Notes: a model not told the origin generated them from the letters alone. DNA of 32,000 nt from an uncultured Erysipelotrichaceae bacterium (GCA_964436975.1 CAYTET010000001.1:1-32000); one strand, 5' to 3'. Shown: positions 2-20,357, counted from the stretch's first letter. Made by a program: numbers and translations.

Positions 2-1711
2 TTATTTTGTGTTACCCTCAACTCCCACTGAAACAGAATTAAACAGCGCCGTGGACAGGAAAATCTGGCCGTCGGTGATGGAAATGACATTAGTGGGAAT
101 ATAAGCTGAAATATCGCCGGCCTGGGTTTCCACGATTGGCAGAGCGGTCAAAGACCCGCCGCCCAATTCATCGGAAAGCTTGGCGCTGCGTTCCAGCAGA
201 CGGGAATGCAGATAGAAAACATCTCCGGGATAAGCCTCCCGTCCCGGCGGCCGGTGCAGCAACAGCGACAGGGTCCGGTAGGCAATGGCATGCTTGGACA
301 GGTCATCATAAACTATCAGGACATCTTTGCCCTGCTCCATCCATTCCTCGCCGATGGCACAGCCCGCATAGGGTGCCGCATACTGCAAAGCCGGCAGATC
401 AGCGGCCGAACTAACCACCACAGTGGTGTATTCCATGGCTCCGAACTGCTTCAGCTTTTCAACCAGCCGGGCCACCGTCGCGTTTTTCTGGCCGATGCTG
501 ACATAGATGCAGTAAACATTCTTATTCTTCTGATTGATGATGGTATCCACCGCAATGGCCGTTTTGCCGGTCTGGCGGTCGCCGATGATCAGCTCACGCT
601 GGCCCCGGCCGATAGGAATCATCGAGTCAATAATCTTCAGTCCCGTCAATAGCGGCTGTTTGACCGGCTGGCGGCTGATAACACCCGGCGCCAGTCTTTC
701 AATCGGTCTGCTCTTGCGAGTATCAATTTTGCCCAGGGCATCCAGCGGATGGCCCAAAGAGTCGACAACCCGGCCAATCAAAGCATCACCGACCGGAACT
801 TCCATAATCCGCTGGGTTGCCGTGACCGGCGATCCCTCGGTTATATTGTTGTCTTCATTCAGCAGAACAGCTCCGACATTGTCTTCTTCCAGGTTCATTA
901 CCATGGCACTGGCGCTGCCGACTTTCAGGATTTCACCGATCATCGCCTCGCGCAGGCCCTTGATATTGATGATGCTGTCAGAAATGCTGTAAACGTAGCC
1001 GGTGGTATTGGCCAGGGCATCGTCCAGCTCATTGCGGCTGTTCAGACCGTCCAGCTGCTGTTTTATCAGGGATGAAATATCCTTGGTATCCAGCGGGGTC
1101 TGGTAGTCATCCAGCTTCTGCTGAATCAGTTTGGTGATATCCGAGGACTCCAGGGGAGCCTGCTCGCCTATCCGCAGAAGGCTCTGCTTCAGCTGGTCCA
1201 GCTTATAGCGGTAGGAGCCGTCATAAGACTGGTTGTCAACAACGACTTTAATGCCGCCCAGCATCTTGGTATCGACTTTGCCCGTCAGCTGGACATTCTT
1301 GCCCAGCCGCTGGCTCATGGCCTGGCTGATCTGGGTTACCTGCTCAGCGGTCAGCGGACTGGCCGAATAGACCGTGCCGCGGCTGACCCGGCCGGCCTCG
1401 TCGCTTTCATTTAAAAATTCCTTCAGCGTCTTGCCGGGGATTTCCGGGTGCTGCATATCAGCACTGTCGCTGATGACATCCAGAAAGGCATCAATAAAAT
1501 CAGCATCCAGCTGCTGCTTGAATACCTGATTGATGACATTAGTTTTTTCGCTTTTGGAAATGCGCGGGTTGCACAGATACCAGTTCAGATCTTCCGACGT
1601 CTTTAACGTATCAGCCAGGGCATTGGCCCCGACCCGGTACGGAGTGGTTTTTTTCTGATCGGCAGCGCGTTTCAGCATCACCAAAGCGTTGTGTTGCGTT
1701 ACCGTACTCAT
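2..1711 (-). CDS. atpA: F-type ATP synthase delta(OSCP)-alpha fusion protein; the alpha part ends prematurely at a TAA at positions 2-4
   Basis: 569-aa ORF. Residues ~1-182 end in the delta/OSCP C-terminal signature [28 protein letters not shown]. Residues ~190 onward are alpha subunit: Walker [38 protein letters not shown] and [25 protein letters not shown]. The start overlaps the atpF stop by 4 nt (ATGA). Confidence 0.85.
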
Positions 1712-5412: not shown

Positions 5413-6014
5413 TCGGCCAGCTCCTTTTCTATTTCAGCCAGACTGATCTGGCCTTCTCTTAAACAGACTAATTTTTCTTTGGTGCAATCAATTACTGTTG
5501 AGGCCACATGGGAAAAGCTGGATCCGGTGACGACAGCCGCAATCCGGCCGTCCAGCTGGGCCAGCACCTGTTCATCGGTGTTAGCGGCAGGATGATCGGA
5601 CAGATTGGCACTGGTCACAAACATCGGACCGGTCAGCCGCAGAAGGGCTAATACAAAATCGTCATCAGGGATCCGGATGCCAACGGTTTTGAAACCATTG
5701 ACACTTTCATCACTGATGACGTCTTTCTTATTCAGTACAACGGTTAAAGCCCCGGGCATAAAACGAGCCGCTATGGCAGCGGTACGTGAATCAACAGCGG
5801 CCACTTCTGCCATCTGACTGACATCGGCAACCATTAAGGGAAAAGGTTTGTGGGGATCGCGTCCCTTGGCCTGCCGCATCAGCTCAACAGCCGCCAGATC
5901 ATCATAGCGGACCCCGATGCCGTAAACCGTATCGGTGGGAAAAGCGACAACCTGACCGCTGATAATTAAAGAAGCGGCCTTTTGGATCTCTTCTCTGCTC
6001 AGCACCAGTGTCAT
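5409..6014 (-). CDS. tsaC: L-threonylcarbamoyladenylate synthase (YwlC/TsaC/Sua5 family); start trimmed to the ATG at 6014
   Basis: YrdC-domain motifs [26 protein letters not shown] and [20 protein letters not shown] precedes the internal ATG. The 4-nt ATGA overlap with glyA matches Bacillus ywlC-glyA synteny. Confidence 0.85.
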
Positions 6015-6039
6015 GATTCTCACCCCTTGCTCGCCTAAT

Positions 6040-6049
6040 ATCATAGCAC
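6040..6049 (-). promoter_or_regulatory. Candidate extended -10 element (TGcTATGATA) upstream of tsaC
   Basis: The minus strand reads gTGcTATGATAtt about 25 nt upstream of the tsaC ATG. I could not identify a good -35. Confidence 0.3.
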
Positions 6050-6094
6050 AGATTAAGGTAAACTGATGTATCAATCCGCAAATTGAAACGGGTT

Positions 6095-7189
6095 CTATTC
6101 CTGGGCCTGGGCAATGCTCTGGCGCAGGATCCGCATAATGGTGGCGGCGCCGGCGCGATTGGGATTGATGCGGATCATTCGCTTCTTTAAAGACGGATCC
6201 ATCTTCAGGAAAGTGCCGCTGACCTTATAGAACATCGGAGCCAGCTCATATTTGGATTCGGCGCCCACCGGATTGGGCAGGGCGCCTAATTCAGCCGCCC
6301 GGGCTAAAACCGCCTCGGCGATATCATCTTTAAATTCCACCAGCAGAACCTTGGACTGGCTGTTGGCCAGAAAAGCGTCCTTGATCTGGGGAATGGCCGC
6401 CGCCTTAAGCTCTTTGACCAGCTTCTCATTCTGCTCGGCCTGCACTGCCAGCAGAACCGGAGCACTGACCAGACCGCGCAGAACTTCCATTGCCTGCCAG
6501 CCCTGGACTTTAGAACCGCCGGAGTAATTCATTTTATCAATGCGTTCAATAATATCCTTTCGGCCCACAACAATGCCGACTCCCTCCGGTCCCAGCAGTT
6601 TAAAGGATGAAAAGGCAGAGATGTCAGCACCGCATTCAACGCCGATTTTTTCAACCTTCATCACGGCATAGTTGTCATCAACGATGACCGGAATGTTTTT
6701 TTCCGCCTTGATCGTCTTTATGACATCGGCCAGCTGATAGCTGTCAGAGGGAACCTGACGGGTGTGCTGCAGAAGGACTACATCGATATTGTTGCTCTTA
6801 AGCGCCGCCGTGATACTGGCAGCTTGATTGAAATCGGCCCGGACAATCCGCAGATTCAAGCCCTGCAGTGTGGTTTCACTGCTGGGGTAGATGGGTGCCT
6901 GGTGAACCAGGATAGTGCTGTTGGGCTTAACCGCTCCCATCAAGGCCCACCGGATAGCTCCGGTGCCGGCTCCGGTCACCAGCTGGCAGGCCTGACTGCC
7001 GAAGAAAGCCGCAATGACCCGCTCCGCCTTGGCGGCCGTCTGCGGCTTGTTGATTCCGGCTGTACAGCCCAAATCACCCAGGCTGAGTGACGCGGCGCCC
7101 GCAAATTCTTTTGTGATGCAGTCAACCAGGGCGAACTGCTTTTCTTCCGCCTGGGTCAGGGAGATGCTGTGTAAAGGATAAGTCTTCAT
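6095..7189 (-). CDS. yhfS: PLP-dependent fold-type I enzyme, YhfS/SelA-like
   Basis: 364 aa. It has the glycine-rich stretch LVTGAGTGAI, an aspartate in VIVDDNYA and a candidate PLP lysine in SAFSSFKLLGPEGVG, resembling the SelA/DgaE-type S-x-x-K-LLGGP motif. Size and position match E. coli YhfS (recalled, not searched). Confidence 0.6.
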   Translation of the reverse strand: MKTYPLHSISLTQAEEKQFALVDCITKEFAGAASLSLGDLGCTAGINKPQTAAKAERVIAAFFGSQACQLVTGAGTGAIRWALMGAVKPNSTILVHQAPIYPSSETTLQGLNLRIVRADFNQAASITAALKSNNIDVVLLQHTRQVPSDSYQLADVIKTIKAEKNIPVIVDDNYAVMKVEKIGVECGADISAFSSFKLLGPEGVGIVVGRKDIIERIDKMNYSGGSKVQGWQAMEVLRGLVSAPVLLAVQAEQNEKLVKELKAAAIPQIKDAFLANSQSKVLLVEFKDDIAEAVLARAAELGALPNPVGAESKYELAPMFYKVSGTFLKMDPSLKKRMIRINPNRAGAATIMRILRQSIAQAQE

Positions 7190-7220
7190 AACGATCTTTC
7201 TCCTGTCTTTTTATACGATA

Positions 7221-7291
7221 CCGATAAAAGGAAACGGACGTCAATCCTTTTAGATACATCATCGTATCCGCCGAATCAGAATTGACGTCCG
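7221..7291 (-). terminator. Long interrupted hairpin with a T-rich tail between the yhfT-like and yhfS-like genes (terminator/attenuator-like)
   Basis: An 11-bp perfect stem: CGGACGTCAAT (7235-7245) pairs with ATTGACGTCCG (7281-7291). A GATAC/GTATC sub-stem lies in the loop. On the minus strand the stem is followed by TTTCCTTTTAT. Confidence 0.45.
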
Positions 7292-7325
7292 CTGCTAATA
7301 TCAGGAAATGATAATCAGATTACGG

Positions 7326-8609
7326 CTAGGCTACAGTATACAGGCCGACTAAAGCCAGTATATTGATGACAACGCCGACAATGATCATTGCAATCGGGCC
7401 GACGGCCAGACGGGTAATCGGCTTTTTGAAATACTCATTCATGACAAAGAAGGCCGAGACAATCAGGAAGCCATAGCCGGGAGCCATGCCTTCGGCAGCA
7501 TACATGGAGCCGACCAGCAGAGCAACTTCCAGCAGTTTTGTCATCGCAACCCGCATATCATCACCCAGCTTCTTGAAAGCCGGGAACTTGTCAAACAGCT
7601 TGGCAATCCAGACCAGACCGAAAGCTTCCAGCGACATGGTCAGAGCACCCAGAATGGCGGCCACAATGGCATTGGGAGCCAGCAGACCGACCGTGGCCGT
7701 AAAGCCGATACCGTCAGTAACAAAGGTTCCGGTCATGATGCTTGTTAAACCCTTCAGAGGAATAAAACTGAGCGCCCGGGCGATCGTAATGGGAATAGCC
7801 GAACTGATGTTGCCTTCACCTACGGCAATCAGCGACTGCGGGCCTTCCATCAGCAGACCGATATTGCAGGCCACGCCGTAAATGGCGCCCATCGCGGCAA
7901 TCCAGCCGATATTCTTGCGGATGTTGCCGATGCGGTCAGCAAAAACAGTGGAAAGATTGGTGCTCTTCTGACTCTTGTCGAGACCGGCAAAAATCATAAC
8001 AATAATCAGACCGGCCAGCATGGTGATGCCATCGGCGATGCCGGAATTGACAATTTCCATGATGGATCTGATTAATACCACAATGCCTAATGAGCCAAGT
8101 CCCTTCTTCCAGCCGTAATCCATAGCGATAACCACGCACGGGAAGACGCTGAAGCAGGCGATGACAGGATTGGAAATCTCCTGCCAGGAATTGAAGATGT
8201 TGACCGGCAGTTTGGCCGCCAGATCAACTACGGACTGCAGGCCGCTCAGCAGCAGAACGCCATAAACGCCGCCGGCTAAAGCTGCCAGCAGGGAGAACAG
8301 CAGACTCTTGTTGTTCTTATACCATTTGTCACTCATGTCAGCCGGGAAGGCAATGCCGATGATATCGGTGCCCAGCCACAGGCAGTGGACCAGAATGATG
8401 CTGTACATCAGCGAATACGGAATACCGAAACCGATAACCAGACCAAAACTCAAGCCAAACGTCGTGGCCAAAAATTCACCGTGTTTCAACCGCCCCTCGC
8501 GGTACTCCGGTACAATCGGCCTGACTGCATCGTTGAAGACAGCGATGCCGCGGTTAGCTTCGAAGGCGCCCATGGCACCCGCTAAAAAGATAATAATATA
8601 ACGTAGCAT
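7326..8609 (-). CDS. yhfT: Polytopic membrane permease, YhfT-like
   Basis: 427 aa and hydrophobic throughout (more than 10 predicted TM helices). RBS AAAGGGGA. Size and position next to the yhfU-like and yhfS-like genes match E. coli YhfT (about 434 aa, recalled). Confidence 0.6.
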   Translation of the reverse strand: MLRYIIIFLAGAMGAFEANRGIAVFNDAVRPIVPEYREGRLKHGEFLATTFGLSFGLVIGFGIPYSLMYSIILVHCLWLGTDIIGIAFPADMSDKWYKNNKSLLFSLLAALAGGVYGVLLLSGLQSVVDLAAKLPVNIFNSWQEISNPVIACFSVFPCVVIAMDYGWKKGLGSLGIVVLIRSIMEIVNSGIADGITMLAGLIIVMIFAGLDKSQKSTNLSTVFADRIGNIRKNIGWIAAMGAIYGVACNIGLLMEGPQSLIAVGEGNISSAIPITIARALSFIPLKGLTSIMTGTFVTDGIGFTATVGLLAPNAIVAAILGALTMSLEAFGLVWIAKLFDKFPAFKKLGDDMRVAMTKLLEVALLVGSMYAAEGMAPGYGFLIVSAFFVMNEYFKKPITRLAVGPIAMIIVGVVINILALVGLYTVA

Positions 8610-8664
8610 ATTGTTAATCCCCTTTTCTTTTTTCCTGCTTTATGATTTCCTGCCGCCCAATGTC

Positions 8665-9045
8665 TCAGCCGGTCACCTCCGCATCCTTTTCCAGATAATG
8701 ATTGATGATGACGGGTACGACCCGCTTTATATCTTCAGGCACCATGCCAAAGGCCTGCTTGCCCTCATCAATTCCCTTGCATATTTCTTCTTCGCCAAGC
8801 ATCCGTCCCGGCATGCTGACGGTCAGGCATTTACCGTAGCCGATGATGGCAATGGCCATCGCCAGCGCTCCGCCGCCGCCGGTATCGCAGGCTCCCAGAT
8901 ACAGATCTGCGGTGCCGCTTTTAATCTCCATGGCCGCTTCAATATCGCCCATTACCCGGCATTCAATCCGGCCGGCGGCTGTTTCTTCGGCGGCTTTCAA
9001 AATCTCTTCCTTGGCCAGCTGGCCTCCAATAACGATTTTCAGCAT
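8665..9045 (-). CDS. yhfU: DUF2620/YhfU-like small soluble protein (start trimmed to the ATG at 9045)
   Basis: 126 aa, MLKIVIGGQ...DIEAAMEIKSGTADLYLGACDTGGGGALAMAIAIIGY. RBS AGGGAGGG. The start lies 8 nt after the upstream gene's TGA. Confidence 0.6.
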   Translation of the reverse strand: MLKIVIGGQLAKEEILKAAEETAAGRIECRVMGDIEAAMEIKSGTADLYLGACDTGGGGALAMAIAIIGYGKCLTVSMPGRMLGEEEICKGIDEGKQAFGMVPEDIKRVVPVIINHYLEKDAEVTG

Positions 9046-9053
9046 TGTCTGTT

Positions 9054-9401
9054 TCAGCCCTCCCTGTTCATCAGATTGCACAGATGCATGATCATAAACT
9101 GCTTCTCACTTTCCGGAAAAACCACCGGCGCCGGCTGGCTGATCTGTTCAAACAGCACGGCCGCATTCTGGTAATATGGCGATCTGACAACCTGCTGCCA
9201 GATATCAGCACCCAGCTGACCGGCCGGCTCATTGTTTTTTATCCGCTGGCTGGCCATGGCCAGGTGGGTGGTGAATACTTCCATTTTGCGCTGGTCATAA
9301 TCCGCGGCAGTCAAAAAATCAATGATCTGATTGGTATACTCCGCCACATCATCATCGATAACCCCGGCCGTCTGAAGAAGTTTAACGCGCTGTTTCAGCA
9401 T
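9054..9401 (-). CDS. yhfY: Stand-alone PRD-like domain protein, YhfY-like (start trimmed to the ATG at 9401)
   Basis: 115-aa helical protein containing ...TTHLAMASQRI.... The longer track ORF (to 9509) would run through an intrinsic terminator, so the internal ATG is preferred. The RBS is weak. Confidence 0.5.
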   Translation of the reverse strand: MLKQRVKLLQTAGVIDDDVAEYTNQIIDFLTAADYDQRKMEVFTTHLAMASQRIKNNEPAGQLGADIWQQVVRSPYYQNAAVLFEQISQPAPVVFPESEKQFMIMHLCNLMNREG

Positions 9402-9494
9402 AATATTCAAAATTTTGTATATTGTTCCTGCCCTTATAATAGTTTGCCCGGGCTGACTTGTCAATGCCTTGAAAAAATAAAGCGCCCCTGACCG

Positions 9495-9518
9495 CAAAAA
9501 AACGCCCAAAGGCGTTTA
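9495..9518 (-). terminator. Rho-independent terminator between the yhfZ-like regulator and the rest of the cluster
   Basis: The minus strand reads AAACGCC-TTTG-GGCGTTT followed by TTTTG: a 7-bp stem, 4-nt loop and U-tract, 45 nt downstream of the yhfZ-like stop. Confidence 0.7.
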
Positions 9519-9563
9519 GCAACAGGCAGCAGCTCCCGACCGGCCGGCTGGGCGCTGATTATT

Positions 9564-10490
9564 CTAATAGCTGGGAATGCGCTGGCCGGTTTCAACGCTG
9601 TGCTGGATGCGCAGTATTTCATCCCGGTCAATTATCCGCTTCAGCAAAAGGCCAATGATCGGCTCGTCTTTTTTGGTAATAATGACGGCATTGGTATCTT
9701 CTGATTTGCCGTAAGAAACCGGCACGCAGTGCACATCACTCATTTTCTCGATTATCTCATCCTCATTCCAAACCGTCGCATCCAGATCCCCGCTCTGAAC
9801 CAGTGACAGCAGCCGGTTGTACTCCACCGGACAGTACTGGACTGTTTTGCCGCGGCAGGCATTGTGCGTCATATCGCTCTGGTCAATGGAATCGGCATCA
9901 ATGCCGATCCGCATGCCGTCTTTGATGGCGCTGTCGGCCGGATTATGGAAAATGATTACATGCGACGAGCAGTATGTGCCGATGCCGAATTCACAGACGA
10001 TGTCGATGCTGTCGGCATGCTGACGGATATACTTTTTGGCCGCATATTTAGAGACAACCGCAAAATCATAGCGGTTTTCCAAAACCATGGCGATCCGGTT
10101 TTTGGCTCCCCGCATATAAGACAGGCTGACCGGAATCTCATCCTTGTTTTCCATTTCACTGATAAGACCGGTGGCCAGGCCTTCGTATTTTTTTGAATAT
10201 GGCAGCGGCATGGCCCCGACCAGCATTTCAATGCCGGCAAACTCTAAAAGGATGTGGTCGTTCTTCTGCGTCAGAAAGGAACCCAGATAACCCCGGCTGG
10301 TGATATGGATAGCCTCATTGTCCTGCAGGGTGCGGATGGCCGACTGCACTGTTCCCCGCGAGATCTGCAGCTTTTCGCTCAGCTCGGTGACAGTCGGGGT
10401 CTTAGCCAAAACCGCGCAGATTAAAAATTCTTTGGCAATGCTTTTAACGGCCAGGCCGTTCTTGCTCATTAAGATGTTTTGATAATCCAT
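9564..10490 (-). CDS. yhfZ: Transcriptional regulator, YhfZ-like (N-terminal wHTH plus C-terminal ligand-binding-like domain)
   Basis: 308 aa. The HTH segment is PTVTELSEKLQISRGTVQSAIRTLQDNEAIHITSRG. It is the first gene of the cluster, as in E. coli yhfZ. Confidence 0.55.
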   Translation of the reverse strand: MDYQNILMSKNGLAVKSIAKEFLICAVLAKTPTVTELSEKLQISRGTVQSAIRTLQDNEAIHITSRGYLGSFLTQKNDHILLEFAGIEMLVGAMPLPYSKKYEGLATGLISEMENKDEIPVSLSYMRGAKNRIAMVLENRYDFAVVSKYAAKKYIRQHADSIDIVCEFGIGTYCSSHVIIFHNPADSAIKDGMRIGIDADSIDQSDMTHNACRGKTVQYCPVEYNRLLSLVQSGDLDATVWNEDEIIEKMSDVHCVPVSYGKSEDTNAVIITKKDEPIIGLLLKRIIDRDEILRIQHSVETGQRIPSY

Positions 10491-10519
10491 TTTGCGGGCT
10501 GCCTTTTCTTTTCATCCGT

Positions 10520-10529
10520 ATCATAGCAC
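10520..10529 (-). promoter_or_regulatory. Candidate extended -10 element (TGcTATGATA) upstream of the yhfZ-like gene
   Basis: The minus strand reads cgTGcTATGATAcgg 30 nt upstream of the ATG at 10490. The -35 is weak. Confidence 0.3.
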
Positions 10530-10653
10530 GGAATAAACCCCTAAGAGAATATCCATTATGCTTTTTGCCGCCGGAATCAGACCGGCCGCCGTTTTATCAA
10601 AACTTTTTTTGTGATATCGTATATCTAAAGAAGATTATCTACAGGAGGATAAT

Positions 10654-11778
10654 ATGCCCAGAAAATATGATCCGGCAATAATTGAGGCAATGAACCGGAA
10701 GGCCTGTACTGTTGAATATGAAGGTGTAAAGGTTTTGGTAAAACCGATTCCGGAAGGCGGGGATGACGGGGACATGGATCCCCGGCTCTACCAGTCCATG
10801 AAGAAACTACCGTTTCTAGCCCATTTCATGCCCAAGCCCAAAAAGGACGCAACGGTGCTGGAGCAGATCATGCCGCTGCGCAAGATGTTTGGCGAGTATA
10901 AGGGTGAAATCCTCGTGACGGAAGGCCTTCATAAAGAAGAAATCACCGTGCCCAGCGCTGACGACTATGCCGTCCCGGTCCGGATTTACCGCCGGCAGTC
11001 AGCCGGCCAGAATTTGCCGGTGATGGTCTATATCCACGGCGGCGGCTTTTTTGGCGGCGGCATGGATATCGTCGAACAGATGTGCGAACTGCTGGTGACT
11101 GATCTGGACTGTGTCTGTCTGAATGTCGGCTACCGGCTCTGCCCGGAAAACCATTATCCCCAGCCTTTTGATGACTGCTGGGCCGCCGTTAAGTATATCT
11201 ATGACCACGCCGGCCAGTACGGCGCTGATAAGAATAAGATTGCGGTAGGCGGCGACAGCGCCGGCGGCAATCTGGCCGCCGGACTGGCCCTGAAGGACCG
11301 CGATGACAATACCGGCATGATTAAGCTGCAGGTGCTGATCTATTCTTCCGTCAACATTGCCGGTCAGAAAACAGCTTATTACAAGGGTGTTGACAACAGC
11401 CTGTACCATACTTCCCGCAAGCATGCCAAAGTTTTAAATGCCGTCTTTAATCTGATGGGCGGTCTGCTTAATGGCAATGGCAGCCTGCTCAACGATGTCT
11501 ATCTGCAGAACAGCGTTGCGCCTGACTGCATATACGTATCCCCGCTGCTGGATGACTTCCACAATCCGACCCCGGCTTTGCTGGCGTTCGGCGAGCATGA
11601 CATGCTGGCCTTTGAAGATTTTGCCTATGCCCAAACGGCGACAGCCGCCGGCATGGATCTGAAAACCATCATCTACCGCGGCTTAAGTCATGGCTTTGCC
11701 GATCAGATTGGCGTCATGCCGCAGGCAGAAGACCTGATGGCCGAAACGGCCCGGCGCATGCAGGAAGTCTTGAAATAG
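10654..11778 (+). CDS. Alpha/beta-hydrolase esterase/lipase, hormone-sensitive-lipase (Aes) family
   Basis: 374 aa with the oxyanion-hole motif VYIHGGGFFGG and the nucleophile elbow GGDSAGGNLA. RBS AGGAGGA. Confidence 0.8.
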   Translation: MPRKYDPAIIEAMNRKACTVEYEGVKVLVKPIPEGGDDGDMDPRLYQSMKKLPFLAHFMPKPKKDATVLEQIMPLRKMFGEYKGEILVTEGLHKEEITVPSADDYAVPVRIYRRQSAGQNLPVMVYIHGGGFFGGGMDIVEQMCELLVTDLDCVCLNVGYRLCPENHYPQPFDDCWAAVKYIYDHAGQYGADKNKIAVGGDSAGGNLAAGLALKDRDDNTGMIKLQVLIYSSVNIAGQKTAYYKGVDNSLYHTSRKHAKVLNAVFNLMGGLLNGNGSLLNDVYLQNSVAPDCIYVSPLLDDFHNPTPALLAFGEHDMLAFEDFAYAQTATAAGMDLKTIIYRGLSHGFADQIGVMPQAEDLMAETARRMQEVLK

Positions 11779-13720: not shown

Positions 13721-15737
13721 TCAGTTAAAGCTGCGGCCGTTGAGCAGAATCTGCTCGTTATACTGCCGCAGATATTTTTTAAGCTGCTCCAGATCCATTC
13801 CGTCCAGCAGCATCTTGGTTACAGTTTCGTCTGAAACGGTAATGTTTATGAGGTGGGGCAGCGACTCATTTTCAAAATTGTTAGCCTCGGATGTGACCAG
13901 GCCCCGGTCCCAGTAGACAATGATCTGGGCCTTGTGCAGTTTCCACTGAATAGCCTTCTTCAAAATGAAGATGCCCACAAACACCTTGGCGGTATGCCCT
14001 TCCAAAGGCGTCAGGTAAACAACATTGTTAAGGTCCATGCTCTGAAAATAGCGCTCGGATTTCAAAAGCGAATCATAGACCCCTTTTTTGGTGGCTGATC
14101 TGGCTTCAACATAGGATGCAATATAGCGGAAAACCTCATCCTTATTCTTAGCCGGCAGACCGTTTTCAATGCTGATTCCCTCATTCATATAGACATGATT
14201 GGAAATGCCCTTGGAAGCAATGTGCTGAACGATAGTCCAGCGAATCTGCTGCTTTTCCTTCTCGCTGAAAAAGACGTCGGTATTGATGACGGTTATATTA
14301 GATGGCATGATAGGCAGGGTCTGAGACGGTACGGAGGTAAAGACAAAATCATAATGTGAAAGGTCAAGATTATGCAGTTCATAGATATTGCAGGGCACAA
14401 AATCCTGAATCTTTCCGCCAAAATTACGCTGCAGTCTTTCGGCCATGCCCTTGGCAACCGATTTATTTACCTGGGAAACCACCAGAGCCTTGGCTGACCG
14501 GAAACTGAAGGGATAGCGGCCGAATACCGGATGAATCAGGCAGGCCAGCTTATAGATTTCATCAGCATCAAGTTTAATCTTGTACTGCTCCTCCAGAAAT
14601 ACGGCCGACTGAATAGCCAGTTTGCGGGCCATCAGACCCAGCGGAAGACCGGACAGCCGGTAGTTAGTGTGCAGATGAAACTCCATCCGCATGCTTATCT
14701 GCAGCAGATTCATGCTGATAGTATCAATCAGTTCCATATCTTTGCCGATATAATCAAAATCGTTGATATCGTGCAGGTAGTTTGAAACCGCAAACGCCAT
14801 CTCGCGGCAGGTCAGATAGTTCTCCCTGAGGGGGAAATCAGAGGGCTGCAGCATATTGCGGTTGGCAATAATGAAGATCGCGATATAAATATCATCGCAG
14901 GTATAAAAGGCCGTCTTGAGCAGTTCCGCGGCTTTTTTAGTTATAATTTTAGCCGTGTAATAGGAATTGCGGGCCAAAAAGCGGTCCTGGACATCATCAT
15001 CATAACTTAGCCGGTAACCCTGCCTGTTGCGCTGGCCCATAATGTAAATGCTGCTGGCCAGACTGGCAATTTCAGTGTCGGACAGGTCATTGCGGGAATA
15101 AGCATCCACATTTTCCAGCACAATCTGCTGCAGAGCATACATTGTCTCTTCCGGCATCTGGTATAAGGTCCCGTAGTCTTCAGCCAACTGCAGCTGGCAG
15201 CGCTGATAATAGTAGTTTTCACAGTTCAGGCAGGCCCGGATGTCAGCTTCCCTGCCATCGATATACAGACCGTGCTTGCTGCGGGTCTTAACTTCAATCG
15301 CAAAACCAGCCAGAATCTCTTTGGCATTATTGTAGTCATTCAGCACCGTCGTCCGGTTCAGGTACATCAGTGATTCCAGATCCTCGATCCGGCTGTATTC
15401 TTTCTGGCAGAGCAGGTAGCGGACGATCAGGTGGGCCCGCTGCTCAAACAGCGGAATCATCTGGTCGGTCTGATTATCATAGGCGCAGGCTTTGATGTAA
15501 TTGTCCAGCTTGGCTTCGTCATTGACGATCAGAAGATAGCCGGCCCCGGACCGGCAGTCCAGTTCTGCCCCGTTTTCTTTAAGCTTGTCCTGCATGTCCG
15601 CCAGAATCGTGCGGATTGTCTTGCTGGAAAAACCCAGATTGCCGGCAAAAAAAACCGGAACTCAGCCGCTGCTGGCGGTCCCGCATCAATTCAACTATTT
15701 TGATCTGAATCCGGTTCAGCTGTTCTGCCATATTCAT
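13721..15737 (-). pseudogene. PRD-containing HTH transcriptional regulator (MtlR/LicR/ManR-like) disrupted by a +1 frameshift in an 8-nt homopolymer
   Basis: The 624-aa ORF (13721-15595) lacks an HTH. Upstream, M(N)MAEQLNRIQIKIVELMRDRQQRLSSGFF runs into the T8 tract. Removing one T restores ...SSGFFAGNLGFSSKTIRTILADMQDKLKENGAEL..., a typical HTH, in frame with the long ORF. Confidence 0.75.
15647..15654. repeat. A8/T8 homopolymer at the frameshift site of the PRD regulator
   Basis: Read directly: ggc-aaaaaaaa-ccgg. Confidence 0.95.
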
Positions 15738-16403: not shown

Positions 16404-17459
16404 TCAGTCAAGGCTGCCGAATTCCTTCTGCAGATCAACACACTGAAACTTTTTATCATAGTCATAGATCAGCTTTTCAACCTGCGGCTGCAGGGTCTGA
16501 TCAAAAAGGAAGTAATCAAGGTACTCATAATGCCGGCCGCGGGCGCTGTTGACCACCGCTCCCTGACCGGCCAGCAGTTCCGTCAGCCTTCTTTCCATGG
16601 TATCGCGCAAAGCCTGGTCAGCCGCATTATTGCCGACTGTCCGCTTGAAAACCAGAGAATAGTAACCGACGCCGCATGAAATGACGTAGGCGGTTTTATA
16701 GTGATTGGCCTGCTGCTGGTCATTGAGCAGATCAAGGCAGTAGGAAGTCCCCTGGTAAATATCCTTGCGCACTTCATTTGACCGGGCGGCCGTCTCATAA
16801 CTGTCAGCCACCAAAGTAATGTCTTTGGGCAGCGTCCAGCTGCTGGCAGCACAGGCGTTGAGCATATAACTGTCCAGCTCATCTAAAGCCATGATCTGAC
16901 CTTGGTGCAGCAGACGCCCCAGCCGGGTCAGCAGCCCGATTCTGCCGATATAGGCTTCGGTGGCCAGTTCACCGATATAATCCTGCAGCAGCAGGAATAA
17001 AACCGTATAAGTATCAGCCGGAACAAAACCGGCAAAATGTTTTTGATTGGAAAAATCAACATCGAACCTTTTTCTTTTCTTATCCACACTGACCGATACC
17101 TTCATCGCATGGCCGTCAAACTGGCGCTGCTTGTATTCCAAAACTCCCTTATAGGCATGATGGTAATAGTTAAAATTCCACAGCCCCTTCAGACAGGGAT
17201 CCATCTGATCGCACAGATACTTGAACAGCACAAACTTGCTGCCGTCACTGCCGGCATTGAATTCCAGAATATACCGCTTTTCCGCCGCAGGCTTGTAAAG
17301 CCGGAAGATGGCCTGCCCGATGACCGGTTCTAAATGCTGGTGCATGACCGCCGCCGCCTTTTCAAAACTGCCTTCATCAAGCAGGGCTGAAATTTTCTGC
17401 TGGTTGGATGCCAGCCACTGGCTGAAAGTCTGGCAGCGCTGTCGGTAATCGGGAGTCAT
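16404..17459 (-). CDS. Hypothetical protein (351 aa from the ATG at 17459; a GTG at 17462 is also possible)
   Basis: Long ORF with a strong RBS (AGGAGGT). It lies between the PTS operon terminator and a bidirectional terminator. I recognise no motif. Confidence 0.6.
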   Translation of the reverse strand: MTPDYRQRCQTFSQWLASNQQKISALLDEGSFEKAAAVMHQHLEPVIGQAIFRLYKPAAEKRYILEFNAGSDGSKFVLFKYLCDQMDPCLKGLWNFNYYHHAYKGVLEYKQRQFDGHAMKVSVSVDKKRKRFDVDFSNQKHFAGFVPADTYTVLFLLLQDYIGELATEAYIGRIGLLTRLGRLLHQGQIMALDELDSYMLNACAASSWTLPKDITLVADSYETAARSNEVRKDIYQGTSYCLDLLNDQQQANHYKTAYVISCGVGYYSLVFKRTVGNNAADQALRDTMERRLTELLAGQGAVVNSARGRHYEYLDYFLFDQTLQPQVEKLIYDYDKKFQCVDLQKEFGSLD

Positions 17460-17487
17460 CACGGCATACCTCCTGGTGTCTGTTTGA

Positions 17488-17532
17488 ACAAAAAAGCCGG
17501 GCAGACATATCGTTTAGGTATGTCTGCCCGGC
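17488..17532 (-). terminator. Rho-independent terminator after PTS IID
   Basis: 14-bp perfect stem GCCGGGCAGACATA/TATGTCTGCCCGGC, followed on the minus strand by TTTTTTG. Confidence 0.9.
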
Positions 17533-17546
17533 CGCTAAACTTGCTG

Positions 17547-18350
17547 TTAAGCTAAAAAGCCGATAGCGCCTAACAGAATACCTACTGCAATAATAATCCA
17601 AATCATCTTGGTTGAAGTCATCTTTTTCAGACCCAGGCCCCAATAAATCAGGGCGACAGCCACAACGTTGCCAAAATGAGGGACAATGGTGTTCAGCAGA
17701 TCATTCAGATTCTGGGAGACTTCCCCGATAGTGAAGGTCAGGCCGAATTTGACATTGACCGTAGAAGCCACCAGCGCACCGACGACGGTAATGCCGACGA
17801 TGGAGGCGACTTCAGTCAGATTATGCAGCTGGGCCGTCCGGTTAGTAACAAAGGAAACACCCTGGTCATAAGCAACATAGAACAGTCTGTTGAAAGTAAA
17901 CCAGATCACCAGTTGGACTGCTTCGGCAATGACCCAGCCGAAGATGTTGCCGGCTAAAGCCTGATAGGCGGCAATAGCCCCGAAGATAGTCGGGAACAGA
18001 ACCCAGATGATGGCATCGCCGATACCGGCCAGCGGGCCCATCAGAGCAGTTCTTAACTCAACAGCTGTAAAGGTGGCATCATCGCTCTTGCTTGACTCAA
18101 TGGCCAGGCAGGCTCCCAGCACCAGGTTGCCGCACCAGGGATGCGTATTATAGAATTTGAAATGGCTTCTGTATTTTTCTCTGAGAACTTCGTCATCGCC
18201 ATAAATCTTCTTCATGGCCGGATGAATGGACCAGACCCAGCCGCCCGACTGCATTGTTTCATAGTTGAACGGTGCCTGCCGGGTCCAGATGTATCTGTGC
18301 AGAACCTGCGATAGATCTTTTTTGGTCAGAACGGAATTGTTGTTACTCAT
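17547..18350 (-). CDS. PTS mannose/fructose/sorbose-family EIID component (start trimmed to the ATG at 18350)
   Basis: 267 aa starting MSNNNSVLTKKDL...FNYETMQSGGW...GPLAGIGD, as in ManZ-type IID proteins. RBS GGGAGGAG. Overlaps the IIC stop by 8 nt. Confidence 0.85.
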   Translation of the reverse strand: MSNNNSVLTKKDLSQVLHRYIWTRQAPFNYETMQSGGWVWSIHPAMKKIYGDDEVLREKYRSHFKFYNTHPWCGNLVLGACLAIESSKSDDATFTAVELRTALMGPLAGIGDAIIWVLFPTIFGAIAAYQALAGNIFGWVIAEAVQLVIWFTFNRLFYVAYDQGVSFVTNRTAQLHNLTEVASIVGITVVGALVASTVNVKFGLTFTIGEVSQNLNDLLNTIVPHFGNVVAVALIYWGLGLKKMTSTKMIWIIIAVGILLGAIGFLA

Positions 18351-19134
18351 CTTCGTTAGCTCCTCCCTTAACGGCATTCTGCTGAATAGCCGCCATTTTG
18401 TCGTTATTCTCCAGATACAGATAGATTATGTAGGCAACTACGGCTGCCAGACAGGCAATGGCCAGCATCGGCAGATTGGCATAGGCATACAGCACAAAGC
18501 CGAAGACCAGGAAGATGCCCCATTTTTTGACCGGCAGATACTTCATCAGAATCGCAAAGCCCAATCCAGGCAGCAGACCGGCGCAGACTGACAGGCCGTT
18601 CATCAGCCAGCCAGGAATAGCCGCTATCATCGAGTTGATAAAGTGGGAGCCGACAGTCATAACTAGCAGCACCGGCAGGGTATAAAGCAGGGAACGGGCG
18701 ATCATCCAGCCCCAGACCCAGAAGGTCATGCCCTTCCAGTCGCATTTCTCACTGCAGGCCATCTCGCGATGGATGAACAGTGAACCCATCATCTTCATTA
18801 AAACGTCAAACTCGGTTCCTAAAGTGGCAACCGGAATACCGACAGCCAGACCGGCTTCAATACCGCTGCCGGATGAGATGGCAAACAGCGTGCCGACGGT
18901 TGTTCCCAAAGCATAATCCGGAACAGAAGATCCGCCGTAGCCGCCGATACCCAGACCCATCAGACACATCGTGCCGCCGACAGTAAGTCCGGTGGTCACA
19001 TCGCCCATGATCAGACCGATCACAAAGCCATACAATACCTGTACCCCGTAAGCGAAAACCTGCGCGCTCCAGCCAACCAGTGACATTACGAACACGAACA
19101 GGCAGCTTAACAGGATCTGCATAAATGTAAACAT
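18343..19134 (-). CDS. PTS mannose/fructose/sorbose-family EIIC component
   Basis: 263-aa polytopic membrane protein placed between the IIB and IID genes. RBS AAGGAGAGG. Confidence 0.85.
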   Translation of the reverse strand: MFTFMQILLSCLFVFVMSLVGWSAQVFAYGVQVLYGFVIGLIMGDVTTGLTVGGTMCLMGLGIGGYGGSSVPDYALGTTVGTLFAISSGSGIEAGLAVGIPVATLGTEFDVLMKMMGSLFIHREMACSEKCDWKGMTFWVWGWMIARSLLYTLPVLLVMTVGSHFINSMIAAIPGWLMNGLSVCAGLLPGLGFAILMKYLPVKKWGIFLVFGFVLYAYANLPMLAIACLAAVVAYIIYLYLENNDKMAAIQQNAVKGGANEDE

Positions 19135-19176
19135 ATGTACACCTCTCCTTTTCTTTTTTCCTTGTTCAGCAAACTT

Positions 19177-19677
19177 TTAATCCAGAATAGTTGTGCAATG
19201 CGTAATAGGATCTTCCGTGCGGAACTGGCAGTCAATTTCGATACCGGCATCCCGCATTTCTCTCAGCATCTGCTTTTCATCATCATTAATCCGCACCGTC
19301 TTGGCTAAAACCAAAGTCGGATGCAGATTCTGGGTGACATCACCCAGGTTGAGCCGCTTGAACTTGACGCCGCCTTTGAAGATCTCATAGATGTCCTGAA
19401 TCTGCCGGCCGACAACAAAGACCCGCTGACCGGCATATTTATTGACCCCGAAATTTTCAATCGCCTTGCTGGGCGAGATACATGACAGGGCAACTCCGAC
19501 CGGAGTGGCCATTTTAATTGTGGAGCGGATCATATCATTGTGGGAAACGCTCTCGTTTATAACCATAGCCCGGGTGGCCTTGAGTTCGGGAATCCACTGG
19601 GTAGCGACGATTCCGTGAATCATCCGATCATCAATGCGGACATCGATAATGCCGTTTTCTGTTTCGTAGCTGTTCAT
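19177..19677 (-). CDS. PTS mannose/sorbose-family EIIB component
   Basis: 166 aa with the phospho-histidine motif VRIDDRMIHGIVATQW. RBS AAAGGAGGAG. Confidence 0.85.
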   Translation of the reverse strand: MNSYETENGIIDVRIDDRMIHGIVATQWIPELKATRAMVINESVSHNDMIRSTIKMATPVGVALSCISPSKAIENFGVNKYAGQRVFVVGRQIQDIYEIFKGGVKFKRLNLGDVTQNLHPTLVLAKTVRINDDEKQMLREMRDAGIEIDCQFRTEDPITHCTTILD

Positions 19678-19779
19678 AGCTCCTCCTTTCTCTCACCAAT
19701 ATCCTGGTTTCTATTAAAGATTCTACCGACTAGAATCACAGAATGGCATAAAAGGAAATGGCTTGATTTTGCGCTTTTC

Positions 19780-19793
19780 TGACAGCGCTTTCA
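19780..19793. promoter_or_regulatory. Candidate catabolite-responsive element (cre, CcpA site) in the PTS IIB leader
   Basis: The minus strand reads TGAAAGCGCTGTCA, which fits the cre consensus TGWAANCGNTNWCA at every specified position. Confidence 0.55.
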
Positions 19794-19886
19794 GTCAAAA
19801 CAAGCCCGATTTACGGTCATTGCGGCAATCACTGTAACTAAAAAGCACCTTATTGTTTACTTTAGGTTGACGCCATTTGATAACCG

Positions 19887-19904
19887 GGCGGACAAAAAAA
19901 CCGC
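19887..19904. repeat. Intergenic motif GGCGGAC-A7-CCGC (copy 1 of 2)
   Basis: ATAACcgGGCGGACAAAAAAACCGC. Compare the copy at 21914-21930. Confidence 0.5.
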
Positions 19905-19919
19905 TTCAGGATAAAGCGG
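19893..19919 (-). terminator. Rho-independent terminator directly after the PTS EIIA gene
   Basis: The minus strand reads CCGCTT-tatcctg-AAGCGG followed by TTTTTTT. Confidence 0.75.
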
Positions 19920-19946
19920 CTGTGGCTGACATAATTGGCTGATTAT

Positions 19947-20357
19947 TTATTCGTCCTGATCGCCAAATGATTCAAATTTATAATCGTTCATGCAGACGGC
20001 TCCGTCTTTGCCGGCTTTCTCTAGGGCCTTGATTTCTTCCGCTGAAGCATCCGGCGGCAGGCAGCTGGCCTGGATAAGCATCGGCAGATTCATGCCGGAA
20101 AAGATAAAGGTGTCCGGCCGGCTCAGCTGGGGAATGACAAGCTGATTGACGCTGCCGCCCATGATATCCGTGAATATCAGCACCTGATCATCAGTCGCCG
20201 TCTGCTCCCAGAAGCGGGCCAAGTCAGCCTTAGGATCACAGTCATCCACGTAGGCACTGATGGCACTGTAGTTTTCTTTCTCCCCGATAAACAGCTGCAG
20301 CGAATTAAGCAGTCCTTTGGCCATGCCGCCATGGCTCAGCAGCAATATCTTTCTCAT
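19947..20357 (-). CDS. PTS mannose-family EIIA component
   Basis: 136 aa with N-terminal MRKILLLSHGGMAKG (active-site His) and FTDIMGGS. Confidence 0.8.
   Translation of the reverse strand: MRKILLLSHGGMAKGLLNSLQLFIGEKENYSAISAYVDDCDPKADLARFWEQTATDDQVLIFTDIMGGSVNQLVIPQLSRPDTFIFSGMNLPMLIQASCLPPDASAEEIKALEKAGKDGAVCMNDYKFESFGDQDE

Follow-up and report, generated by a model that had tools for sequence, protein, structure and literature searches.

Can five yhf genes, standing together on one strand, make up a complete uptake and catabolic system on their own? The question is raised by positions 6095-10490 of a 32,000-nucleotide stretch of DNA from an uncultured Erysipelotrichaceae bacterium (GCA_964436975.1 CAYTET010000001.1:1-32000; the whole stretch is called the window below), which hold five co-directional open reading frames (ORFs) on the minus strand, yhfZ, yhfY, yhfU, yhfT and yhfS. 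A first-pass annotation, made from the sequence alone, had read them as a minimal core of the E. coli yhf operon and had likened them to the phosphotransferase system (PTS). We conclude instead that the window probably carries the larger half of a split seven-gene, php-less yhf catabolic regulon, in which yhfX and yhfW are unlinked and lie behind the same operator; this reading includes the mechanism proposed further below. The yhf genes are long-standing E. coli unknowns, with solved structures for four of the proteins and no substrate known. Literature searches on the gene and family names found nothing on function, in agreement with the annotation, which knew of no established function either.

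The five genes (Table 1) have the sizes first described for them, as ORF reading bears out, and profile searches against Pfam and NCBIfam place all five products in the proposed families (YhfZ, PRD, DUF2620, YhfT and YhfS). YhfZ scores 365 bits on NCBIfam YhfZ_full (cut-off 260) and 235 bits on Pfam YhfZ_C, with matches to HTH_41 and GntR besides, and reaches E 4e-30 against PDB 2ozz. YhfY matches Pfam PRD at 27.4 bits (cut-off 23); public gene callers start it at TTG 9410, which gives 118 amino acids. The scores are 139 bits on Pfam DUF2620 for YhfU, 389 bits on Pfam YhfT for YhfT, which matches this Pfam family only, and 142 bits on YhfS-like_C for YhfS, with PDB 4j8l at E 2e-120. Judged by such scores, the window genes are clear orthologues of E. 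coli YhfZ, YhfY, YhfU, YhfT and YhfS. The Schiff-base lysine of YhfS, Lys197, is invariant in 26 homologues. A resemblance of YhfS to the ammonia-lyase DgaE had been suggested and was rejected: the DgaE model TIGR01437 gives only 18.7 bits against a cut-off of 385, and the protein belongs to its own YhfS family. The locus is flanked by tsaC and glyA after yhfS and by a divergent esterase gene before yhfZ, and the order Z-Y-U-T-S-tsaC-glyA was seen again in six independently assembled contigs from other samples.

The window's own assembly is a metagenome bin of 1.75 Mb in 99 contigs, 93% complete, in which the missing genes were sought by tblastn with proteins of relatives as queries. yhfX and yhfW were found as neighbours on a 5.7-kb contig, C85. 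The YhfX encoded there, a fold-type-III pyridoxal phosphate (PLP) enzyme, reaches E 5e-96 against 4kbx, the structure of E. coli YhfX, and the phosphopentomutase-like YhfW scores 578 bits on NCBIfam PRK12383, the YhfW-type phosphopentomutase model. The statement that php, yhfX and yhfW are absent thus holds for the locus, and for the genome it fails in the case of yhfX and yhfW. php, of the PTE family, was found neither by tblastn nor as a match to PF02126 in this genome, and tblastn gave no homologue of the amidase that accompanies php in many relatives. The order ICMT / yhfX-yhfW / ApbE was seen again in six other independent contigs, and in two samples both loci are present on separate contigs of at least 20 kb. 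Since both loci recur across independent contigs, they are features of the species and not binning artefacts. Their 10-kb flanks hold no further yhf genes.

The two loci share a palindrome. The predicted YhfZ site upstream of yhfY stops one base short of the ATG, and a related site lies within the yhfX promoter (Table 1). The general motif, a core of TWCA-N6-TGWA with AT-rich flanks, occurs in intergenic regions ahead of yhf transcription units in most other loci, including that of E. coli, and was found at the yhf loci of 15 or more other genomes, Hungatella and Maledivibacter among them. Maledivibacter has one operator before yhfZ and one before yhfY; a shuffled metagenome locus, L067, has one before yhfU and one before yhfW. 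A weight matrix made of sites from 15 other genomes only was scanned over the whole 1.75-Mb genome: the yhfY site ranks first with 31.3 bits and the yhfX site (C85:733) second with 25.0 bits, and no other site reaches 20 bits, the third scoring 19.7 bits. With its winged helix-turn-helix (HTH) and a palindrome at both promoters, YhfZ has the appearance of a local repressor of the GntR superfamily acting on a dyad operator, and yhfX-yhfW and yhfYUTS are predicted to be one regulon under the same operator.

The third-ranked site lies on contig C10 at about position 32122 (L058:2123), flanked by a nanE-like gene and by one in which a 6-phospho-N-acetylmuramidase (MupG) is fused to two GNAT domains. 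It may be a chance match or a weak extra member of the regulon.

For comparison we collected 30 loci. They come from 22 YhfT-carrying genomes of the same phylum, from E. coli and from two Hungatella species, and six were traced through close homologues of YhfT or YhfU. A scan of genome contigs with YhfT alone gave the two Hungatella loci, and family searches over genomes were used instead. Outside the window species S, X and W share a cluster with T and U as far as the contigs extend, S, X or W is found beside T and U in all 29 other loci, and most of them have php as well as a further gene of about 330 amino acids that bears an amidase signature. yhfT and yhfU are adjacent in 21 of 21 loci and yhfX and yhfW in 17 of 21, while the remaining genes shuffle. 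A five-gene locus with an unlinked X-W pair is the only case among the 30. The idea of a five-gene minimal core was not upheld by this comparison: with yhfX and yhfW retained elsewhere under the same operator, the set consists of seven genes, not five.

Two of the loci are unusual in other ways. L067 (1510-12241; YhfT 75% identical to that of the window) is a php-less cluster beside a transposase gene, and in addition to its two operators it carries genes for a Y_phosphatase3 protein and a BadF/BadG-type ATPase. In genome G107 (L035:5967-8306) a pair of small ORFs of 87 and about 100 amino acids, without a Pfam match, stands in three tandem copies directly upstream of yhfU.

Seven loci (Hungatella, an Olsenella-type contig, Maledivibacter halophilus and four metagenome contigs) encode a YhfT that is 58-91% identical to that of the window. 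Where their sequence extends far enough, they are without php and the amidase gene and retain the whole set of Z, Y, U, T, S, X and W. The YhfT tree groups the php-less loci in a single clade (support 100/100), whose one further member is the second permease of a locus that has two; other members of the window's taxonomic family have php-type permeases elsewhere in the tree. No division between php-less and php-carrying loci appears in the X and W trees, which means that php and the amidase co-vary with the type of permease and not with the enzymes. As far as gene content and the YhfT tree go, a php-less seven-gene yhf subtype is thereby defined, and the pattern fits Php and the amidase as a substrate-specific front end to a common trunk of S, X and W.

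The two-permease locus belongs to a Negativicutes metagenome-assembled genome (L084:2725-12330). One YhfT paralogue has a PRD gene and php as its neighbours; the other, which belongs to the php-less clade, is found beside yhfU and an amidase gene, and an NYN-domain gene stands in between.

In the nearest relative (YhfT 91% and YhfS 78% identical) yhfX follows directly after yhfS, and the gene order in Maledivibacter is Z-Y-U-T-S-X-W; the separation of X-W therefore appears to be recent in the lineage. In the trees the X of the window species groups with the X of L067, as its T does with the T of that locus. The X and W trees, being without a php division, do not decide between relocation and replacement of the pair. 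What is new in the window is the split, php-less arrangement, together with the link between permease type and php.

Several points weigh against this account. The whole-genome matrix scan gave no operator upstream of the window's yhfZ. The pattern by which the training sites were collected was first taken from the window palindrome, so that the matrix is not fully independent of it. In the 73-residue fragment of YhfX available from the nearest relative, identity with the YhfX of this genome is only 42%, and the X-W pair may thus be a replacement instead of a simple relocation. In a 99-contig bin that is 93% complete, finally, the absence of php stands as not found and is unproven.

The window locus is organized as two transcription units, yhfZ alone and a yhfY-yhfU-yhfT-yhfS operon. 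The promoter-like site of the operon scores best within 5900-10800; clear ribosome-binding sites precede yhfU, yhfT and yhfS each, and the yhfU-yhfT spacer measures 55 nucleotides. The hairpin in the yhfT-yhfS spacer folds at -40.3 kcal/mol (z -2.9 against shuffles); it is possibly an attenuator or an RNA-stabilising element and may determine how strongly yhfS is expressed relative to yhfYUT. Its 3' arm overlaps with a weak promoter-like site. Rfam matched no family in the window or on C85, and the 211-nucleotide leader of yhfX showed no unusual structure (z -1.3).

Table 1. Positions of the yhf genes and of the control elements around them. Positions are those of the window, except for the site on contig C85.
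Feature	Position	Strand	Description
yhfZ	9564-10490	-	308 amino acids; GntR-type winged-HTH regulator with YhfZ_C sensor domain
yhfY	9054-9401	-	stand-alone PRD protein; 115 amino acids counted from the ATG
yhfU	8665-9045	-	DUF2620 protein; 126 amino acids; GACDTGGGGAL = residues 51-61
yhfT	7326-8609	-	polytopic membrane protein, presumed permease; 427 amino acids
yhfS	6095-7189	-	fold-type-I PLP enzyme of the YhfS family; 364 amino acids
Operator, predicted YhfZ site	9403-9422		20-bp palindrome, core TTCA-N6-TGTA; between -10 hexamer and yhfY start codon
Related palindrome before yhfX	C85 733-752		in the spacer of a TTGACA-17-TACATT promoter
Promoter-like site of yhfY-U-T-S	9436-9464	-	TTGACA, 17 nucleotides, TATTAT; 11/12 consensus matches
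Terminator-like hairpin	9496-9516	-	6-bp GC-rich stem, then T run; ends the yhfZ transcript; read from the sequence
Long hairpin, yhfT-yhfS spacer	7233-7293	-	16-bp stem, then T-rich tail

In the mechanism that we propose for the split regulon, YhfZ would repress both units through the palindrome and would release both once the nutrient, or an intermediate of the pathway, is bound to its sensor domain. YhfT would import the compound, with YhfU as an obligate cytoplasmic partner, and YhfS, YhfX and YhfW would convert an intermediate that bears an amino group and resembles a phosphorylated sugar acid. The PRD protein YhfY would report the PTS phosphorylation state to the system. The Php and amidase of most relatives would serve a front end that this subtype can dispense with.

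The analogy with the PTS drawn in the first-pass annotation, with an EIIB-like YhfU, an EIIC-like YhfT and PRD control, finds support for the PRD protein and none for the fold of the other two. YhfY is a real PRD, above the Pfam cut-off and with both histidines conserved: in 23 homologues H46, R53 and E99 do not vary, and 96% of them have H106, E. coli being the exception. The YhfY profile matches PRD1 of BglG (E 1.4e-5) better than PRD2 (E 6e-4), and His46 and His106 align with BglG His101 and His160. PRD1 of the antiterminators is the module that is phosphorylated by the cognate enzyme II (EII). In a locus of genome G025, which belongs to the same order (L040:4706-5926), a natural fusion joins a PRD (residues 40-108) to a Php/PTE hydrolase (residues 122-401), a hint that, besides transcription, the PRD also targets proteins of the pathway. 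The genome holds enzyme I (EI) and two HPr genes, and no EIIA or HPr gene was found in the annotated yhf neighbourhoods (30 sampled). Co-occurrence with EI is uninformative, as EI is found in 22 of 22 YhfT genomes and likewise in 48 of 48 genomes of the family.

In YhfU the cysteine of the GACDTG motif is conserved, as the annotation had supposed: the loop Cys53-x-Thr55-Gly4, with its cysteine, threonine and glycine run, is invariant in 60 homologues. The structural model, built with the same number of homologues, is confident (predicted local distance difference test, pLDDT, 94.9; predicted template modelling score, pTM, 0.89) and describes a five-stranded alpha/beta protein in which the cysteine stands directly after strand 3, in a Gly-rich loop at the N-terminus of a helix. 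A Foldseek search of the PDB ranks RpiB first (3s5p, 3k7s, 6fxl, 1o1x and 3he8; TM 0.56-0.68), followed by CheY-type receivers and flavodoxins, with no PTS EIIB in the top 50 matches. The EIIB-like fold that had been expected did not appear, and membership of YhfU in the EIIB family was supported neither by the best fold match nor by the place of the cysteine, which follows strand 1 in Cys-type EIIBs. On the evidence of the model, the RpiB-like fold weakens family membership and would still be compatible with a phospho-cysteine function.

The sequence relations of YhfU are weaker than the structural one. An hhalign comparison with E. coli RpiB covers 27 columns only and is not significant (E 0.067); it sets Cys53 and Thr55 opposite the catalytic Cys66 and Thr68, the former of which is the catalytic base of RpiB. 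Pfam LacAB_rpiB is not matched by YhfU at E <=0.01. The protein has homologues in the Gly-rich SFCGS proteins (hhalign E 4.9e-4, 109 columns, cysteine aligned); it scores 18.9 bits on Gly_rich_SFCGS, which is below the cut-off of 27.3, and one SFCGS homologue in turn matches LacAB_rpiB weakly (21.1 bits, cut-off 24.7; E 3e-4). As to its role, YhfU may be an RpiB-like isomerase that acts on the imported compound, an assignment for which the odds fall somewhat short of even. A cysteine phosphocarrier in the manner of EIIB and another thiol-dependent or purely structural partner of YhfT are both less likely roles.

YhfT gave a model of about a dozen hydrophobic helices (pLDDT 88, pTM 0.86) that has no fold match in the PDB (best E 0.23, TM at most 0.21). 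The sequence has no internal repeat. Comparison with DUF4311 and DUF4310 by hhalign gave no similarity, in a weak test of a profile against single sequences. An exhaustive search of 1.84 billion cluster representatives returned 263 relatives, many of them fragments. YhfT would thus appear to be a small, isolated family, and nothing in its sequence or model supports the relation to EIIC that had been proposed: no solved fold is matched, and the only Pfam family is YhfT itself. Its invariant charged residues (D27, R30, E35, R40, H75, D82, E328 and R353) would fit a carrier of a charged or zwitterionic solute.

Of the other explanations for these proteins, the one that survives best, rather doubtful as it is, dispenses with the PTS except for catabolite control through YhfY: YhfT would be an ion-coupled carrier, YhfU a soluble RpiB-like isomerase, and the kinase would be unlinked. 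It draws on RpiB as best fold match with the aligned Cys-Thr pair, on the LacAB_rpiB match of the SFCGS homologue, on the many invariant charges of YhfT, as found in carriers, on the BadF/BadG-type ATPase in the cluster of one close relative, and on a ROK kinase gene 1.3 kb from yhfZ. The constant adjacency of U and T while other genes shuffle nevertheless suggests a complex and not a free enzyme, and the other catalytic and phosphate-binding positions of RpiB are not evidently kept in the short hhalign match. Most clusters, moreover, are without a kinase, and the ROK gene is not near other yhf clusters.

We regard it as unlikely, though worth stating, that YhfU, YhfT and YhfY form an unrecognised phosphotransferase-type branch of uptake, with an RpiB-fold cysteine phosphocarrier, a permease whose fold matches no solved structure and a PRD1-like protein that senses the phosphorylation of the carrier. 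If this were true, the php-less split regulon would be the simplest natural version of a new phosphotransferase branch. Still less probable is the self-sufficient PTS-like system of five genes from which our question started, in which YhfU is EIIB-like, YhfT EIIC-like and YhfY the controller, with YhfS as the sole enzyme needed. The PRD1-like YhfY with its aligned histidines, the invariant cysteine of YhfU at a helix N-terminus, the invariable U-T pair and the presence of EI and HPr in the genome speak for it. So do the conserved gene set, which is without a kinase though YhfW needs a phosphorylated substrate, and the homologous SFCGS clusters, in which a U-like protein occurs together with a PRD regulator, a SelA-like enzyme and a KDGP aldolase. 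Against this stand the retention of yhfX and yhfW behind the same operator, the RpiB fold of YhfU without any EIIB among its top 50 matches, the cysteine after strand 3, a YhfT that matches neither EIIC nor any solved fold, and the 30 neighbourhoods without an EIIA or HPr gene; the EI co-occurrence adds nothing to it.

The genes of the split regulon are intact, and purifying selection acts on them. Six contigs of the same species show 18 synonymous differences (3 in Z, 11 in T and 4 in S) and 0 non-synonymous ones, all ORFs are intact in six further assemblies of the species, and both operators are identical across its assemblies. That the locus is a decaying, non-functional leftover after deletion of php, yhfX and yhfW, as its length, shorter than 29 other loci, and the failure to find php and the amidase in the genome might suggest, is highly improbable in view of five intact ORFs in seven assemblies with exclusively synonymous differences, conserved catalytic and motif residues, a near-consensus promoter with its operator, a yhfXW pair retained with an operator of its own, and a YhfT clade in which the absence of php is the norm.

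The wider neighbourhood had been taken as a clue to the substrate, an argument that fell away. The esterase, ROK kinase and MBL genes do not occur near yhf clusters in the other fetched loci, which makes the neighbourhood species-specific and says little on the substrate. The matrix scan found no operator at their operon, and it was rejected as a part of the system on both counts. A mannose-class PTS does lie nearby, as had been reported (16404-20357); it has its own PRD regulator and no bearing on the yhf substrate. At 15647-15654 a homopolymer splits a PRD/Mga-type regulator gene. The run is one base shorter in four same-species assemblies, where one intact ORF of 671 amino acids is found, so that the split is specific to this assembly, either an error or phase variation. 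The delta (OSCP) and alpha subunits of ATP synthase are encoded as one 721-amino-acid protein (window 2-1711; L051:17335-19500 in the same species), a fusion called in several independent assemblies and therefore not an artefact of the window.

The split regulon defines a seven-gene working set, with YhfZ and its two operators as the experimental handle. In this species the pathway appears to work with neither php nor the amidase, and the php-less form narrows the role of the common trunk of S, X and W. The YhfZ operator can be used to locate dispersed members of the regulon. The question of most interest is whether YhfU and YhfT make up a phosphotransferase transporter of a new kind or whether they are a carrier to which an isomerase is attached.

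The closest known gene order is that of E. coli K-12, yhfZ-yhfY-yhfX-yhfW-php-yhfU-yhfT-yhfS (b3376-b3383), for which the structures 4j8l (YhfS), 4kbx (YhfX) and 2ozz (C-terminal domain of YhfZ) are available. All of these genes but php have orthologues here, and both species have the same type of TWCA-N6-TGWA operator before the transcription units. They differ in that the window has the order Z | Y-U-T-S, that X-W is unlinked with a promoter and an operator of its own, and that php is missing; YhfT is 31% identical to that of E. coli and falls in the separate php-less clade. The php-less clusters of Hungatella hathewayi, H. effluvii, Olsenella sp., Maledivibacter halophilus and metagenome contigs have the same seven families, with a YhfT 58-77% identical to that of the window, and Maledivibacter shares the exact Z-Y-U-T-S order with the window. 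In these relatives S-X-W are contiguous, whereas X-W is unlinked in the window species.

At the level of single proteins, RpiB/LacAB gives the best structural match to YhfU, including the Cys-x-Thr-Gly loop after strand 3. YhfU is shorter, is always encoded beside a membrane protein, and has Gly-Gly-Gln after strand 1, where RpiB has Asp-His. The D-glucosaminate PTS pathway of Salmonella, dgaABCDEF, is likewise a PTS-linked route for an amino-sugar acid that ends in PLP-dependent deamination; the yhf set differs from it in having neither a mannose-type EII nor an aldolase, and YhfS is not a member of DgaE.

Clusters of the EF_0830/AHA_3911 type, which are not present in this genome, encode a Gly-rich SFCGS protein, DUF4312, DUF4311 and DUF4310 proteins, an EF_0837-like amidohydrolase, a SelA-like PLP enzyme, KDGP aldolase and an Mga-HTH/PRD regulator. 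Their membrane proteins showed no similarity to YhfT by hhalign, the regulator is of another type, and they have an aldolase and are without YhfX and YhfW. They share with yhf the homology of the SFCGS protein to YhfU, PRD control, membrane proteins, an enzyme of the amidohydrolase superfamily and a fold-type-I PLP enzyme. By analogy, the combination of a PRD regulator, a SelA-like enzyme and KDGP aldolase in the SFCGS clusters provides the strongest indirect argument that systems of this kind may act on phosphorylated amino-sugar acids although they have no dedicated kinase.

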